64,000 bases of DNA from an uncultured delta proteobacterium (GTDB lineage: Bacteria > Desulfobacterota > Binatia > Binatales > Binataceae): the NCBI GenBank assembly GCA_963794325.1, contig CAWCDG010000005.1:64001-128000 (forward strand). The letters run 5' to 3'. Positions within the stretch are counted from its first letter, which is position 1, and each line of letters starts with the position of its first letter. The notes under the pieces were generated by a model that was given only the letters and a program-made list of their open reading frames with translations, did no database searches and was not told the DNA's origin. A program made the position numbers and the translations under genes. This document shows positions 10,577 to 19,445 of the stretch, in pieces.

Positions 10577-11284
10577 CTACTTCCCCTGCGGCGTTTGCCC
10601 GACCTGCCACAATTTCTCCGGCACGATTATCAGCCGCCGCCCGTCGCGAGTAATCACACCCTCGCGTTCGAAATCGTTGAGCTGCTCGGTAGTACGCTGG
10701 CGCGACGCGCCCACCAACTCCGCCAGATCCGCATGAGTCAGCTTGATCGTTAGCAACGTCCCGCGCGAGTCGCGCACGCCGAACTTTTCCGCCAACTCGA
10801 GCAGCGCACCCGCCAGCCGCTCGCGGAGTCCAAGCCCCACGAAGTTCGCGTACCGCACCAGCATTCCCCACCATCTCCCGACCGTCACGTCGAGTATGAT
10901 GCTCAGCCGATCGAGCGGCACGCCGAGCACAGTATCCACAAAAATTTCCGGCTTCACCACCGCGACGAGGCAATCGCTATACGCCTCGCATCGAAACGGC
11001 CGCGTGGTTTGCGGCAGCAGCGACGACAATCCGAACACCTCGCCCGGCCCGACGAAGCCGACCAGCACGCGCTGCTCGCGATTCACGTAACACAGCTTCG
11101 CCACGCCCGACAGCAGGATATAGACGTGACTCGACGCATCGCCTTCCTTGAAGATCGGCCCTTCGCGCCTCACCTTTAGCGCCTCCGACGCAGCCGCCAG
11201 ATGTGCTGCCTGATCTTCGCGCATCCACGACAGCGATTTGAGCCGCGTCAGGGATTTGGCATCAACTGCGACTTCCGCTACCAT
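10577..11284 (-). CDS. Crp/Fnr family transcriptional regulator with a CooA-like RQ recognition helix
   Basis: cNMP-like beta-roll (GPGEVFG) and HTH LTHADLAELVGASRQRTT. Confidence 0.92.
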   Translation of the reverse strand: MVAEVAVDAKSLTRLKSLSWMREDQAAHLAAASEALKVRREGPIFKEGDASSHVYILLSGVAKLCYVNREQRVLVGFVGPGEVFGLSSLLPQTTRPFRCEAYSDCLVAVVKPEIFVDTVLGVPLDRLSIILDVTVGRWWGMLVRYANFVGLGLRERLAGALLELAEKFGVRDSRGTLLTIKLTHADLAELVGASRQRTTEQLNDFEREGVITRDGRRLIIVPEKLWQVGQTPQGK

Positions 11285-11312
11285 GAACGTTAGCTAGCAC
11301 AATCGAAGTAAT

Positions 11313-11328
11313 TGTCGCGAATGTGACA
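11313..11328. promoter_or_regulatory. Crp/Fnr (CooA-type) operator TGTCG-N6-TGACA
   Basis: tgtcg-cgaatg-tgaca between the divergent regulator and phaE. Confidence 0.65.
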
Positions 11329-11362
11329 GCTCCCGCGATTCTTTTCCTCGATATGCACCTTT

Positions 11363-11378
11363 TGTCACGGGTGCGACA
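11363..11378. promoter_or_regulatory. Crp/Fnr (CooA-type) operator TGTCA-N6-CGACA
   Basis: ttTGTCA-cgggtg-CGACAaa, a second palindrome 50 bp from the first. Confidence 0.65.
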
Positions 11379-11475
11379 AACGTAAGCGTATCTAATGCTT
11401 GACGTAACTATCATATTACCGCAACTTACTTACGCCAAGACTGTGGAACATTCGAAGCAGAGAGAGGTAGTACCG

Positions 11476-12111
11476 ATGGCCAACAACAACGACAACCCAA
11501 GGAGCAAACTGAACTTCACCGACTCAAATTTTTCCGATGAGATCCTGAAACTCGCTCAGTGCCTGATGCCCGAGCCACCCACCACCAAAGTGAAGCGGCT
11601 CGTCGCAACCATCGCCGACAAGGGAATCGATCGCCAGCTTCATGAACTCGGCTGGAAGGCATACGATACCGTGGTCGGCGTTGCCAACAATGCAACCAAT
11701 CGCGTCTTCACCAGTCCGACCGTAGGCAACCTGCTCGGCGGTGCAGTCGATATCATGCTCCGATACCAGCGCTTCAATATGGCCGTCGCCGGCGCATTCT
11801 TCTCGGCGCTGTGGCCGGCCGTCGGTCTGCCTTCCGCAAGCGAAGTCGAGTCGCTCCGCGTTGACGTGCGTGCGATGCGCGAGGATCTGCGCGACGCCGT
11901 CGCCGATCGCGACACCAAAGACGACTTCGCCAGTGACCTGCACCGCGCGATCCGCGAGTCGATCATTAGCCCGCGAACAGTCGACCAGGCTGCCGCCCTC
12001 GAATCGATCGGCCACAAGCACGCCGAGAGGTCCGGCGTGTACCAGTTCTCGGTATGGTCCGGATGGCCCAGCGCAGACCCGATGGAGCACGGGGAAGATG
12101 TCGGCAATTAA
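11476..12111 (+). CDS. PhaE-like subunit of class III PHA synthase (divergent)
   Basis: GAGG RBS; VGLPSASEVESLRVDVRAMR resembles the PhaE C-terminal LGLPTRSE.. coiled coil; overlaps phaC. Confidence 0.6.
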   Translation: MANNNDNPRSKLNFTDSNFSDEILKLAQCLMPEPPTTKVKRLVATIADKGIDRQLHELGWKAYDTVVGVANNATNRVFTSPTVGNLLGGAVDIMLRYQRFNMAVAGAFFSALWPAVGLPSASEVESLRVDVRAMREDLRDAVADRDTKDDFASDLHRAIRESIISPRTVDQAAALESIGHKHAERSGVYQFSVWSGWPSADPMEHGEDVGN

Positions 12112-13162
12112 CGAAATCGCTTCGCTCTGGATGGAAGGCACGATGCGCACGCTCGACGCGTTCCGCACCGGCTTCGGCGCCACGATGGACGATCCGCCGC
12201 CCGCGACGCGATCGCGCGTCATCTATGAGTCCGGCCTCGTGCGGCTGCGCCACTACCGCGCCCTCGGCGAAAACCCCAAGCGCGTGCCGCTGCTGCTCAT
12301 CTACTCCCTGATCAAACGCCCCTTTATCCTCGACCTGCAGCCCGGCCGCAGCGTCGTCGAGTATCTCGTCAAACAAGGCTTCGACGTTTACCTGATCGAC
12401 TGGATTCCACCGCGGGCCGACGACAAGGGCCACGGCTTCGACGAGTACGTCAACGTCGACATCGCCAACGCCGTCCGCGCCATCCAGATTTACACCGGCA
12501 TCCAGCAGATCTCGATCCTCGGCTACTGCTTCGGCGCGCTGCTCGGCCTGATGTACAGCGCGCTGCACAGCGGCAACGTCAAGAATCTCGTCACCTTGAC
12601 CATCCCGCTCGACACCAGCCCGCGCCAGTTGCCCATCGAGCATCTGACGGCCGCGATGTCCTCGCGCAGCGCCAAGATGATCGTCGATATGTACGGCAAC
12701 GCGCCGGCCTGGATGATCTACTCGTTCTTCAACACCCTCGCGCCGACCCATCACATGCTCGACAAGTTCGTCGGCGCATATCGCAGCTCGGCGCGGCCCG
12801 GCTACCTCGACACCTTCAAGCTGTTCGAGCGATGGCTCCATAGCGACGTGCCGATGGCCGGTCGAATCTTCCTCGAGACCTCCGAGATGTGGCGCGAGAA
12901 TTCGCTGGTCAAGGGCACGATGAAAGTCGGCGCATCGATCGCGGACCTCGCCGGCATCAAGATGCCGTTGTTGAACGTCATCGGCGACCGCGACGACATC
13001 GTCAATCCCGCATCGAGCGAGCCGCTCCCCGATTTGGTATCGAGCGACGACAAACAGAATCTGCACTACCCAACGGGCCACATGGGCGCGGCGATCAGCG
13101 CCGACTCGCTCAAGCGTCTATGGCCCCAAATCGCCAATTGGCTGAGTGCCCGCGATGAGTGA
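12098..13162 (+). CDS. phaC: Class III polyhydroxyalkanoate synthase PhaC
   Basis: PLLLIYSLIKRPFILDLQPGRSVV, DVYLIDW, lipase box GYCFG, Asp in RDDIV, His in TGHMG; 354 aa. Confidence 0.88.
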   Translation: MSAINEIASLWMEGTMRTLDAFRTGFGATMDDPPPATRSRVIYESGLVRLRHYRALGENPKRVPLLLIYSLIKRPFILDLQPGRSVVEYLVKQGFDVYLIDWIPPRADDKGHGFDEYVNVDIANAVRAIQIYTGIQQISILGYCFGALLGLMYSALHSGNVKNLVTLTIPLDTSPRQLPIEHLTAAMSSRSAKMIVDMYGNAPAWMIYSFFNTLAPTHHMLDKFVGAYRSSARPGYLDTFKLFERWLHSDVPMAGRIFLETSEMWRENSLVKGTMKVGASIADLAGIKMPLLNVIGDRDDIVNPASSEPLPDLVSSDDKQNLHYPTGHMGAAISADSLKRLWPQIANWLSARDE

Positions 13163-13349
13163 AGAAACCAAAACACCAGGCTCAACGCACAAGCGGCAAA
13201 AGAAACGGACCGACAAAGGTCCCAAAGGAAACGTAGCGTCCCAGAAGATCGCTGACGCCGTCGGCGCGGCAGCGAAAACAATTTCGATCCACAACGTTAG
13301 CAAAACAAACGGCGGGCACGAGCCGCGCCGGCCATCAGGAGAAAAAGGA

Positions 13350-13610
13350 ATGTCAGAGCACAAAGGGAACGGTTCCGTGTTAGAGGGTCTTACCAGCAAC
13401 CTGAACATCGAGGGCGCCAAGAAGTTCGCCGCGTGGTATATCGACACCAGCGAGAAAGTCGCCAAGCAGGCAATCGACTTCCAGGCGCAGGCGACCAAGT
13501 GGGCGAAAGAAACCCCGCTCGCTCCAATTTTCGACGCACAGCTCGAATACGGCAAAAAGTTTGTCGAGCGCTCGGCCAGCGCCGCCCGCAGCCTCTGGCG
13601 CATCGAATAA
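13350..13610 (+). CDS. Phasin-like small helical protein (alternative start at 13155)
   Basis: AGGA RBS before ATG; amphipathic helix (EKVAKQAIDFQAQATKWAKETPL); last gene of the pha run. Confidence 0.55.
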   Translation: MSEHKGNGSVLEGLTSNLNIEGAKKFAAWYIDTSEKVAKQAIDFQAQATKWAKETPLAPIFDAQLEYGKKFVERSASAARSLWRIE

Positions 13611-13634
13611 TCTTTTCAGTATTAAGGCCGCGCT

Positions 13635-13668
13635 CCGTTGTCGCGCGCGGAATCGCGCGCGACAACGG
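13635..13668. terminator. Perfect 15-bp hairpin after the pha operon
   Basis: ccgttgtcgcgcgcg-gaat-cgcgcgcgacaacgg; no clear U-tract. Confidence 0.55.
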
Positions 13669-13707
13669 TTGGCGCCCTCCTCTGAGAGTCGTTAGATTCT
13701 TCAGAGC

Positions 13708-14973
13708 ATGGCTTCAGAACTCGCATCAGCCAACTCAGCCAACGCGCATGAGATCTCCCGCGACGAGCTCCGCGCCCGCCTGCGTGATCCCTCGCTGACC
13801 ATCCTCGATGTACTGCCCCAGGCCTCGTTCGTCGAGGCCCACATACCCCGCGCCATCAACATTCCGCTCGAGCAGATTCCCACTCAGGCGCGCGAGATAC
13901 TCCCCGACCTCGATGCTGACATCGCGGTTTACTGCGGCAAATTCACCTGAACTCGCGCCCAGGAGGCGGTCGCCTCTTTGCGTGAGCTTGGTTACTCGAA
14001 GGTCCGCGAATATCGCGGCGGCCTCGAGGACTGGATCGAGGCAGACGGACCAACCGAGCGCGTGAACGACGAAGTCTCGGAGCCGAAACCTGACGCCACG
14101 CCCGAGATTGCCGGCCCTCCGCTGAGCGCTTCGCCCGACGGCGCCGTCGGCCGCGGCCCTGCGCGCCTCTCCCGGATGCGCCGGCTCGACAAGTCGGTTC
14201 TCGACCTCGTCCAGCAACGCTCCACTTTGCAGCTGTTCACAATCTGGCTCGCAATGATCCTGCTGACCGGCCTCGCCTACTGGCTTGGCGCGATGCTCGG
14301 CGAGCACGGCCTCGTCGAACAGAGGCGACCCGTCCAGGCCGACCTCAGCGGATTCGCAAGTGCGCTATATTTCAGTTTCGTCACCGCAACTTCCATCGGT
14401 TATGGCGACATCGTGCCGGTCGGCGTTGCGCGCGTGGTCGCTGTAGCGGAGGCGATTGCCGGACTGCTGATCTTCGGCGCGGTCGTCGCCAAGTTCGTCT
14501 CGCATCGACAGGAAGAGTTAGTGAGCGAAATTCACCGCGTCACCTTCGAAGAACGGCTCGACCGCATCGAGACCAATCTGCATATGGTTGTTTCGGAACT
14601 GCTCGCGGTCACTGCGATGGTCGAAGCGAAGGCGCCGCTGAATCGAGTCACCACCCGGCTCGAGAGCGCCGTCATCCTTTTTGTGAGCGAATTGCGCACC
14701 ACCCGCGACCTGCTCTACCAGCCGCGCCTGATGGTCGAGGAAGGCGTGCTGGCCGGGATTCTTGCCACCCTCGCGTCGGCCATGAACGTGCTGGCCGAAC
14801 TGCTCGCGCTACTGCCGGATGAATTCTCGCGCTCGCAGGGATTAACCATTACCCTCGATCGTGTCACTGGTCTGGCCGAGGAGGTTTGCGGCGATTGCGT
14901 CCCCCACTCCTACACCCCAAGGCTCGTATTCTGGATGGACCGAATCCAGGCCACCGCCAAACGAATCAGATAA
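13708..14973 (+). CDS. Putative selenoprotein: rhodanese (YCGKFT-U) fused to a 2-TM K+ channel with a C-terminal helical CxxC domain, 421 aa
   Basis: ORFs 13708-13950 and 13978-14973 share a frame and are separated only by TGA 13948-13950; the rhodanese fold continues after it (LRELGYSKVREYRGGLEDW); FSFVTATSIGYGD filter; SECIS-like hairpin. Confidence 0.82.
13952..13986 (+). promoter_or_regulatory. Bacterial SECIS-like stem-loop
   Basis: Lower stem CTCGCGC/GCGTGAG, upper stem AGGAGGC/GCCTCTT, apical loop GGTC starting 18 nt after the TGA. Confidence 0.78.
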
Positions 14974-15031
14974 TCCCAGTGGGGCGGGCCGCCGTGCCCG
15001 CAATTGACTTGAGAGTGGCGCGGCAAGAATA

Positions 15032-15572: not shown

Positions 15573-16901
15573 CTACGCCGATTGCGCATGCGTGCGCGGC
15601 CGGATCGATTCCGCCAAATCGGCCGCGAACTTGCCCGCATCTTCGACTGGCATGGTCGATGCCGTCACGCGGATTCCGGGCGCGCTTTTGATTCGATAGC
15701 ACTCGCCCGCCCGAATCGCCCAGCCTTTCGATGCCATCGCGTTCACCACGCCCGCTTCTTCCGCGACCGGCACCCACACGTTCAGCCCCGAGCGTCCGCG
15801 CGCCTCGATTCCGTGATTAGCGAGCGCTTCGATCAGCGCGCGCCGGCGATGCGCATAAGTATCGGCCGCTCTCCTCAGAATCGCCGGCGTCGCCGTGTCC
15901 GCCCACATCATCGCGACCAGGTCTTGCAGGATATGACTGACCCATCGCGGACCGAGGCTCTGCCGCCCCTGCACTCGCGCCACCGTCAGCGCATCACCTG
16001 CGACTGCGCTCACTCGCAAATCGGGACCGAGCGACTTCGACACCGACCGCACTGTCGCCCAATCCTTGCGGCCTCCCGACAATGTAATCGCTGGAGCGCC
16101 CGAAACCGGCCCGGCGTGATCGTCCTCGATCAAGACGACATCCGGAAACCCGGCGAGCACGTGCTTTAACTCGGACGCGCGTTTTCGATCGAGTGCCGCA
16201 CCGCTGGGATTCTGCGCACGCGGGGTCAAAATGAAGGCCTTCGCGCCGAGTTTGAGCGCGCGATTCAAATCCGCGGCCATCGGCCCCGAATCGTCGATCG
16301 CAACCGGCTCCGCCACCAGCGCCATCGCCGCAACCAGGTCGAGCACGCCGGTGTAGCTGGGATCTTCGACCGCGACGACGTCGCCGGGCCGCAGATGCGC
16401 CTGCAGGACGCGCTCGATACCGTCGAGCGCGCCGCTGACCACCGCAATCGAATCAGCCGCGATACCATCGCTCTTGAATTGCCGCGCGGCCAGCTTCACC
16501 AGGGCGGCGCGATTCTCGGCGTCGCCGTATTTGCCTGGAATTCCGTCGAGCCGCGCGAGAAACAGCTTCAACTTCGGCAGCATCGCCGGATCAGGCCCGC
16601 CGTCCGCCAGATTTCGCAGCCCGGGAGCGGGCGGCGGAAAGACCGCCCGGGTCAACAGCGGCGGCCGCCGATTGACGACGGTGCCGCGACGCCCCGAGCC
16701 ATGCACCAATCCACGGACCCGCAGCGCGTTATACGCCGCCGCCACCGTGGTCGGGCTGACGCGCAGCTTCGTGGCCAGCGCGCGCACGGTCGGCAGCCGC
16801 TCGCCGGCCTGCAACTTTCCGCCACGAATTCCATCTTCGATGCTCGCGGCGATCTGGTTGCTTGAATCTCCGCGGATTTGATATTGTACCGATACGTTCA
16901 T
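15573..16901 (-). CDS. MocR/GabR-type GntR regulator with PLP-dependent aminotransferase domain
   Basis: GERLPTVRALA..VSPTTVAAAY wHTH; PRAQNPSG, IEDDH, RSVSKSLGPDLR. Confidence 0.93.
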   Translation of the reverse strand: MNVSVQYQIRGDSSNQIAASIEDGIRGGKLQAGERLPTVRALATKLRVSPTTVAAAYNALRVRGLVHGSGRRGTVVNRRPPLLTRAVFPPPAPGLRNLADGGPDPAMLPKLKLFLARLDGIPGKYGDAENRAALVKLAARQFKSDGIAADSIAVVSGALDGIERVLQAHLRPGDVVAVEDPSYTGVLDLVAAMALVAEPVAIDDSGPMAADLNRALKLGAKAFILTPRAQNPSGAALDRKRASELKHVLAGFPDVVLIEDDHAGPVSGAPAITLSGGRKDWATVRSVSKSLGPDLRVSAVAGDALTVARVQGRQSLGPRWVSHILQDLVAMMWADTATPAILRRAADTYAHRRRALIEALANHGIEARGRSGLNVWVPVAEEAGVVNAMASKGWAIRAGECYRIKSAPGIRVTASTMPVEDAGKFAADLAESIRPRTHAQSA

Positions 16902-16932
16902 AGTTACGTACTGTAACAAAGAGGCAAGGTAG

Positions 16933-17658
16933 ATGGAAGAGGCGACGCAGATCCCGCAGACGGCCAATCCGAACGACAGCAGCCACTCGATCGCGGCCAC
17001 CGATCGAACGCGCGTCAAGCGCCTGCCCAAGCGCGCTTCATACGACCGCGAAACCATCTACTCGATCCTCGATACCGCGCTGGTCTGCCACGTTGGTTTC
17101 GCAATCGATAGGCAACCCTACGTGATTCCCACGCTTCACGTTCGTATCGACGACCGTCTTTATATTCATGGATCGGCGGCGAGCCGGATGCTTGGCGCCG
17201 CGGCCGACGGCACGCCGCTAGCGGTCACGGTGACGCATATCGACGGCTTGGTGCTCGCGCGATCGGCGTTCCATCATTCGGTCAACTACCGTTCAGTCGT
17301 GATTCTGGGCAATGCGACCCTGGTCACCGATCCGGCTGAGAAGCTGATCGTGATGAAGGGGCTTATCGATCACGTTGCGCCGGGCCGATGGGACCATATT
17401 CGGCATCCGAACGCGAAGGAGCTCGGCGCGACGTCGGTTCTGTCGATTCCAATCGTCGAGGCGTCGGCGAAGCTCAGGAGCGGCGACCCGTTCGACGACG
17501 AAGCCGACTACGCGATGCCGATTTGGGCGGGACAGATTCCGTTTGCGACGGGAACGTTGACCCCGATCGCCGATGGACGCCTCGAGGCCTCGACACCGAT
17601 TCCTGCGCACGTAGCCGAGTACGCGTTGCCCTTGAATCGAGGAGCAAGAGTTACATGA
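16933..17658 (+). CDS. Pyridoxamine 5'-phosphate oxidase-like flavin-binding protein
   Basis: LYIHGSAASRM, DGLVLARSAFHHSVNYRSVV; usual divergent partner of MocR regulators. Confidence 0.92.
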   Translation: MEEATQIPQTANPNDSSHSIAATDRTRVKRLPKRASYDRETIYSILDTALVCHVGFAIDRQPYVIPTLHVRIDDRLYIHGSAASRMLGAAADGTPLAVTVTHIDGLVLARSAFHHSVNYRSVVILGNATLVTDPAEKLIVMKGLIDHVAPGRWDHIRHPNAKELGATSVLSIPIVEASAKLRSGDPFDDEADYAMPIWAGQIPFATGTLTPIADGRLEASTPIPAHVAEYALPLNRGARVT

Positions 17659-19420: not shown

Positions 19421-19445
19421 TCACATTCTGCAGTGAGTACTTTAC

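Follow-up and report, generated by a model that had tools for sequence, protein, structure and literature searches.

According to the part of a review of bacterial selenoproteins that was available (PMC13188914), the bacterial SECIS is modelled as a hairpin with a loop of 3-9 nt and an upper stem of 4-16 bp, a G in the first two loop positions that is usually followed by G or U, a UGA-to-loop distance of 16-37 nt and an MFE of -7.5 kcal/mol or lower. In E. coli fdhF the hairpin lies directly 3′ of the in-frame UGA, inside the coding region. When the region after codon 140 (TGA) of this gene was read from the K-12 genome (NC_000913.3) and folded, a GGTC loop was predicted 18 nt from the UGA, closed by a top helix of only 3 bp whose 5′ strand has a bulged U, in agreement with the GGUC loop that a first-pass annotation of the present locus had ascribed to fdhF.

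The same review, within the part available, tabulates five rhodanese selenoprotein forms with the motifs UxxS, UxxG, CxU (NF041203), UxxG and, for TsoB, UxxxxU (NF045694) (PMC13188914). In forms 1, 2 and 4 Sec is the first motif residue, taken as the catalytic position, while in form 3 it stands at +2. TsoB, listed as "rhodanese form 5" and rhodanese/DsbD fusion-like, joins a rhodanese domain to a membrane protein. None of forms 1-4 is listed there as a channel fusion, and the word "channel" occurs 0 times in that text (PMC13188914).

Here we describe a hairpin at 13952-13986 of the window, the whole 64,000-nt stretch of DNA that was analysed, which is very probably the bacterial SECIS of a rhodanese-K+ channel fusion gene, with its core at 13961-13978 (Table 1).

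A SECIS-like hairpin downstream of an in-frame TGA

RNAfold of positions 13945-13995 (51 nt) returned exactly the two-part hairpin drawn by the first-pass annotation, with an MFE of -24.0 kcal/mol (z = -3.35; 0 of 200 dinucleotide shuffles fold as well), and the structure was retained when folded in a 151-nt context. The lower and apical stems are separated by two-base and one-base interruptions. The positions and pairings earlier assigned to the TGA, both stems, the loop and a TTG at 13978-13980, which is in frame with the TGA-containing ORF, match the sequence base for base.

Table 1. Features of the rhodanese-K+ channel locus, in window coordinates
Feature	Position	Strand	Evidence
Rhodanese-K+ channel gene, 421 residues with TGA read as Sec	13708..14973	+	ORFs, translation, PF00581, PF07885, model
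TGC codon of Cys76, aligned with the catalytic Cys of solved rhodaneses	13933..13935	+	Alignments to 6mxv, 3tp9, 1yt8
In-frame TGA, read as selenocysteine U81 (predicted)	13948..13950	+	TGA in 61/61 stop-containing orthologue segments; TGC in stop-free segments; Sec machinery present
Full hairpin in the window genome, including the lower stem CTCGCGC 13952-13958 / GCGTGAG 13980-13986	13952..13986	+	RNAfold
Conserved core of the predicted SECIS: 7-bp apical stem AGGAGGC 13961-13967 / GCCTCTT 13972-13978, loop GGTC (GGUC) 13968-13971	13961..13978	+	Fold and orthologue pairing

The element lies within all constraints of the bacterial model as given in the part of the review available, with a 4-nt loop, a 7-bp stem, the required G, a TGA-to-loop spacing of 17 nt (13951-13967) and an energy of -22.1 to -24.0 kcal/mol; no difference from the consensus was found, but the model is permissive and the fit by itself thus carries little weight. 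Compared with E. coli fdhF, the element occupies the same position directly 3′ of a UGA inside a coding region and carries the same predicted GGTC loop, at 17 rather than 18 nt. In contrast with the short, bulged top helix of fdhF, the apical stem in the window consists of seven contiguous base pairs, while in most Binataceae orthologues a U bulges out of the 3′ strand (GCC-U-UGCU) or the loop has 5 nt. The host genes are unrelated. An Rfam search of 13000-15000 (E <= 10) gave no match on the hairpin and only spurious miRNA/IRES matches. Four of these five spurious matches fall on an upstream inverted repeat.

To place these values against the surrounding DNA, every TGA triplet of the window was taken from both strands (1837 in all) and the 42 nt downstream of it were folded. 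The downstream MFE of TGA 13948 (-22.1 kcal/mol) is equalled or surpassed by 11 of the 1837 triplets, and a strict filter (7 or more uninterrupted base pairs next to the loop, a spacing of 16-22 nt, a G at loop position 1 or 2 and an MFE of -20 or lower) is passed by five, TGA 13948 among them. The window hairpin is thus real and within the top 1% of the TGA background of the window. The loose published bSECIS criteria, however, are passed by 505 triplets (27%), so that a hairpin alone is weak evidence in GC-rich DNA; as a general point, hairpin criteria by themselves are nearly worthless in GC-rich genomes. This pass rate favours an alternative in which the hairpin lacks an RNA function and arises as a by-product where GC-rich codons spell out a conserved helix (Q-Q/E-A-V-A-L-L), the UGA being decoded some other way or not at all. 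The position and loop type shared with the fdhF SECIS, and the full Sec machinery of the genome described below, argue against such an origin, which we regard as very unlikely and which is weighed further with the orthologue data.

The host gene and its in-frame TGA

The ORFs at 13708-13950 and 13978-14973 share one frame. Their joint translation contains a rhodanese domain (PF00581, residues 18-111, E 2.5e-16, 60.4 bits against a gathering score of 22.2) and a K+ channel pore (PF07885, Ion_trans_2, residues 214-264, E 1e-13, 51.4 bits against a gathering score of 22.5) with the selectivity filter TSIGYGD, of which G231, Y232, G233 and D234 are invariant in 46 aligned sequences. The remaining regions comprise a disordered linker at about 120-155, a two-TM channel and, at the C-terminus, a helical domain in which a CxxC is invariant. 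An AlphaFold model built on the 46-sequence alignment (mean pLDDT 80.8) displays a strand at residues 71-75, a loop and a helix at 82-93, these three at pLDDT around 90, as well as the disordered linker 120-155, helices of the channel and a helical C-terminal domain modelled with confidence. In a Foldseek search of the PDB the N-terminal domain matched rhodaneses at an rmsd of 1.3-1.9 Å; searching with the whole model returned almost only rhodaneses and nothing informative for the C-terminal domain. Two weak matches to mitoribosome entries are probably spurious.

The TGA sits within the rhodanese fold, where it falls in the active-site loop at a distance of five residues from the preceding catalytic Cys. 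The motif reads C76-G-K-F-T-U81-T-R (C-x4-U), in a loop that alignments to PDB structures show to be two residues longer than the canonical one. C76 is invariant in the 46 aligned sequences, and position 81 is Cys or Sec throughout the sequences compared.

The genome to which the window belongs is 85% complete and encodes selB (375 bits against a cut-off of 242), selA (570 bits), selD (377 bits, itself containing one in-frame TGA) and a tRNA-Sec (72 bits with the Rfam model; identified by ARAGORN as tRNA-SeC, anticodon tca). The region after the selD TGA also folds, but its loop is ambiguous and it offers no clean reference from within the genome. The locus therefore presents the context looked for around a SECIS, namely an in-frame UGA where homologues have Cys, together with selA, selB, selD and tRNA-Sec in the same genome. 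The presence of selA in 154 of 165 Binataceae genomes, those with the Cys form included, makes co-occurrence of the UGA form with the Sec trait uninformative.

A phylum-wide sample of 401 genomes (E <= 1e-20) contained the gene only in the window's own genome, and a family-level search was therefore needed. A scan of species-representative genomes gave 30 orthologous loci, all from MAGs titled Candidatus Binatus, Binataceae, "delta proteobacterium" or, in one case, "Proteobacteria bacterium"; codon 81 is TGA in 24 and TGC in 5 of the 29 loci covering it. Within Binataceae the gene is present in 73 of 165 genomes, at identities to the query down to 45%, with a TGA in the match in 66 and a stop-free, full-length match in 7. 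One genome flagged as unpublished, in which the gene is split over two contigs (G415), is included in the 66/73 tallies and was excluded from the sequence analyses. After 40 further divergent orthologues had been added and identical 66-nt segments collapsed, 67 distinct segments remained, 61 with TGA and 6 with TGC; the stop is never TAA or TAG. Six loci without a motif match were left out of these 67, namely L030 and L073, which begin at codon 78, L040, which is without its N-terminus, L090, a form with two TGA, and L045 and L074, Cys forms whose downstream motif escaped the search pattern; L030 (TGA) and L045 (TGC, a seventh TGC form) are counted within the species-representative set.

Public databases divide along the same codon. 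Full-length entries (about 421 residues) share 57-68% identity with the query, and in the 45 of them that were aligned position 81 is a Cys with a conservation of 90% or more, whereas the entries at 72-84% identity have about 330-340 residues, comprise the channel domain only and are named "Ion channel", "potassium channel LctB" or "hypothetical protein". These shorter products could be taken to mean that the TGA is a real stop, yielding an 80-residue rhodanese fragment and a separate channel protein initiated at TTG 13978 or a similar codon, and in the window an AGGAGG indeed lies 11 nt upstream of that TTG. Such a stop would, however, split a single rhodanese fold between the modelled strand 71-75 and helix 82-93; every orthologue continues the conserved reading frame to either side of the codon, and the stop is always TGA and aligned with Cys. 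The channel-only entries are, moreover, the product expected of an ORF caller at an unrecognised Sec codon. UGA forms thus appear in public collections only as fragments, while Cys forms are annotated at full length.

The initiation signals are not conserved either. The first-pass annotation had suggested that the hairpin masks a Shine-Dalgarno (SD)-like sequence and the TTG, from which a channel-only isoform could be translated. Across the 61 UGA sequences, AGGAGG occurs in 3 and TTG at 13978-13980 in 2; most orthologues have AGCAGG or CGCAGG at the former site, the others have CTN Leu codons at the latter, and an SD core with any nearby in-frame start is found in 2 of 61. This proposal was therefore not borne out by the orthologues and, judged from sequence, appears unsupported rather than excluded for the window genome, while termination at the TGA is, in our estimate, slightly less probable even than the by-product origin considered above. 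In a combined reading, the SECIS would also sequester an internal ribosome-binding site, with selenium supply or SelB occupancy setting the ratio of full-length to channel-only protein. The location of both AGGAGG (13961-13966) and TTG 13978 inside the stem, in the window genome alone, would suit such a dual role, but both features occur together in only 2 of 61 sequences and the product would start in the middle of the rhodanese domain, inside the modelled helix 82-93; of the explanations considered here this is the least probable.

The preferred reading remains that of a SECIS serving a Sec codon, and we infer that SelB binds the hairpin and that Sec is inserted at UGA 13948-13950. With the ribosome at or near this UGA, SelB together with GTP and Sec-tRNA(Sec) would bind the apical loop about 17 nt downstream and would deliver Sec to the A site; the UGA would then be read as U81, giving the full 421-residue protein.

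Hairpin conservation in UGA and Cys forms

The sequences compared all come from one family and are related rather than independent, so that none of the conservation or codon figures below is a probability. Over 25 close orthologues the full 14-bp structure of the window is 57% paired, a value reached by 91 of 500 shuffles. RNAalifold applied to these 25 sequences did not recover the hairpin and returned a 4-pair alternative; pairs were therefore counted on named structures instead. The apical stem, placed in register with one bulged U, is 91% paired in the same set. When five of the seven pairs of the lower stem are added to it, this composite is 83% paired, and sliding the partners leaves 64% or less. 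In the 61 UGA sequences the 7-bp apical stem (alignment columns 20-26 / 32-38) is paired in 86.2% of cells, compared with 29.5-47.3% when the partners are slid by 1-3 columns, and none of 500 shuffles attains the pairing or the covariation score of the real alignment. The alignment column of the loop, and with it the UGA-to-loop spacing, is fixed across all 61. On the sequences compared, the widely conserved unit is thus the apical half only, and the lower stem of the window appears partly lineage-specific. In E. coli, SelB binding needs only the upper stem-loop at a fixed distance, which would fit this restriction to the apical half.

A fixed 30-nt slice of each segment was folded, a hairpin being counted when at least 6 pairs formed with the loop at the same place. 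Such a hairpin is present in the local MFE structure of 55 of the 61 UGA forms and absent from 6. All 55 loops, of 3-5 nt, have a G at position 1 or 2 (GGTC in 22, GGTCG in 9, GTC in 8, TGGAC in 6, GTG in 3, CGTGC and GTT in 2 each, others in 3). By comparison, any hairpin is found in 2 of the 6 Cys forms, with the loops AGCA and GTTG; neither has the consensus G[G/U] pair, although GTTG does begin with G. The mean local energy is -12.0 kcal/mol in UGA forms and -6.6 kcal/mol in Cys forms. The expectation voiced in the first-pass annotation, that UGA-containing orthologues would keep the hairpin and Cys-containing ones lose it, is therefore matched.

RNA and protein constraints are entangled here, since the nucleotides of the hairpin double as codons for the helix (T-R-A-Q-E-A-V-A-S-L-R-E) on the C-terminal side of the rhodanese active-site loop. 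Against synonymous recoding with the gene's own codon usage, the 42-nt MFE of the window alone has z = -1.92 (12 of 300 recoded sequences as low), the mean over 25 UGA orthologues is z = 0.0, hence no excess stability of the region as a whole, and a position-specific local test gives a mean z of only -1.06. Recoded peptides still form the apical hairpin in 60% of UGA-form trials, and most of the structure is thus written into the amino-acid sequence. Together with sparse covariation, double-sided compensatory changes amounting to 9 cells in 3 pairs of the apical stem across the 61 UGA sequences, these values speak for a by-product of coding. The peptide, however, differs at the 3′ arm between the two forms (A-L-L or A-S-L in UGA forms; Q-Q-L, D-Q-L, Q-I-L, R-H-L or H-Q-L in Cys forms), and the proportion of recoded trials retaining the hairpin falls to 19% for Cys forms.

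Third codon positions in the stem are likewise at odds with a by-product of coding. At codon 90, Leu is spelled with a final G in 52 of 53 sequences (CTG 34, TTG 18), compared with 57% of the 2561 Leu codons in the rest of the same genes. Where codon 86 specifies Gln or Glu, it is CAG or GAG every time (52 of 52), although elsewhere in the genes CAG makes up 77% of Gln codons and GAG 54% of Glu codons. Synonymous third positions inside the stem are therefore held beyond codon usage. In the close clade, four of the six four-fold columns in codons 82-91 (83, 87, 88 and 89) fall within the lowest 7.4% of 189; in the wider 61-sequence set the signal is weak, the three usable four-fold columns ranking 6, 18 and 74 of 84. 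The comparison also illustrates a general point, that a bacterial SECIS shapes the peptide it overlaps, with UGA and Cys forms differing exactly in the 3′-arm residues.

The main claim of the first-pass annotation, that a SECIS supports Sec recoding of the TGA rather than a nonsense mutation, is upheld by the Sec machinery, by the TGA/Cys codon and by the conservation of the apical stem. The SECIS, although itself a textbook element, provides a second, independent line of evidence for the TGA as a Sec codon, which is of consequence for how such genes are annotated.

Relation to known rhodanese selenoproteins and possible function

Like rhodanese forms 1-4, as described in the part of the review available, the window protein combines a rhodanese fold with a predicted Sec in or beside the active-site loop. 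In contrast to these forms it keeps the catalytic Cys, carries the Sec at +5 and has a loop two residues longer. Assignment to form 3 (NF041203, LYCAU) was rejected, as the score is 33.9 bits against a cut-off of 115 and the motif is C-x4-U rather than C-x-U. TsoB resembles the window protein in the fusion of a rhodanese domain to a membrane protein and, as far as the available part of the source describes it, in having two chalcogen residues spaced x4 in the active-site loop, U-x4-U in TsoB and C-x4-U here (PMC13188914). The window protein gives a weak domain match to NF045694 over residues 8-129 (E 5.9e-7). Membership of TsoB was nevertheless rejected, with 27.9 bits against a cut-off of 805, a K+ channel partner (Ion_trans_2) that is not DsbD-like, and one Sec instead of two.

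A literature search covering listings and abstracts found no Sec-containing rhodanese-channel fusion, although supplements and non-open papers may list one, and a search on Binatota and selenocysteine found nothing related. We lean towards the view that the gene represents an uncatalogued selenoprotein family, a K+ channel with a cytoplasmic rhodanese domain and a Cys-x4-Sec pair in an elongated active-site loop. The RNA element is of a known kind, and the interest lies in the uncatalogued, mis-annotated selenoprotein that it serves. If this assignment is correct, members of the family would occur widely among Binataceae of soil and would systematically bear the wrong annotation of a truncated "ion channel". 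The protein might also be expressible in E. coli, whose SelB might read a SECIS with an fdhF-like GGUC loop and spacing.

Most known bacterial selenoproteins are soluble redox enzymes; the family would instead provide a selenium-containing ion channel. Within the lengthened loop, the Cys-x4-Sec pair could close into a selenenylsulfide, or it could bear a persulfide or a perselenide. The rhodanese domain is joined to the K+ pore by a flexible linker, an arrangement that suggests gating by chalcogens or redox state, and any of these three states of the sensor could then control K+ flux. Through a channel with such a Sec-bearing sensor, membrane potential or K+ homeostasis would be tied to selenium, sulfur or redox chemistry in a lineage of abundant, uncultured soil bacteria.

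C-terminal cysteine motif and public annotation of the rhodanese-channel protein

The C-terminal helical domain of the rhodanese-channel protein, for which a Foldseek search returned no informative match, contains a C-G-D-C motif. Both cysteines of the motif remain unchanged throughout an alignment of 46 full-length sequences, and a second redox or metal site is possible at this position. Public entries for the orthologues carrying TGA at codon 81 (P0002, P0006, P0019 and others) are systematically channel-only proteins of ~330-340 residues named "Ion channel", "potassium channel LctB" or "hypothetical protein", the rhodanese half being missing from their annotation.

Irregular copies were observed in the Binataceae family search. 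G422 displays a rhodanese-channel form with two TGA codons, G531 has an extra partial or stop-ridden copy with one TGA and one TAG, and G421 and G524 contain extra copies in the form of fragments. Such copies may be paralogues in decay, or may point to a second Sec site.

Genomic surroundings of the rhodanese-channel gene

The neighbours at 10580-13159 and 15576-17655 of the window offer no context related to selenium or sulfur. Between the upstream ORF, which ends at 13610, and the start of the rhodanese-channel gene lies a long inverted repeat rich in GC, which probably serves the upstream gene as an attenuator or terminator. Rfam matches to this repeat were confined to miRNA families and were all spurious.

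Features in and around the rhodanese-channel locus (window positions unless stated)
Feature	Position	Strand	Details
Crp/Fnr-type regulator	10580-11284	-	
PhaC-like alpha/beta hydrolase	11741-13159	+	
ORF without Pfam match	13146-13607	+	154 residues
Inverted repeat	13629-13676		~20 bp arms around GAAT
C-G-D-C motif	14887-14898		residues 394-397
GntR-aminotransferase (MocR-like) regulator	15576-17057	-	
Pyridox_ox_2 protein	16933-17655	+	
TGA with SECIS-like hairpin	19434	+	13 contiguous bp, loop GAAT
TGA triplets with SECIS-like hairpins	16834, 42126, 58080 (reverse-complement offsets)	-	strict filter
selD and selB (L001/L017)	G000:C4:1158546-1161572, outside the window		same strand, ~200 bases apart

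Other TGA triplets and the selD-selB locus

Strong hairpins also lie 3' of four further TGA triplets in the window and satisfy the strict SECIS-like filter (at least 7 contiguous bp at the loop, spacing of 16-22 nt, G in the first two loop positions, MFE of -20 or lower). The hairpin after the TGA at 19434 looks like a terminator behind a stop codon. Elsewhere in the same genome, the fold 3' of the one in-frame TGA within selD is an ambiguous hairpin; selD carries this in-frame codon, and SelD is therefore a selenoprotein in the genome to which the window belongs.
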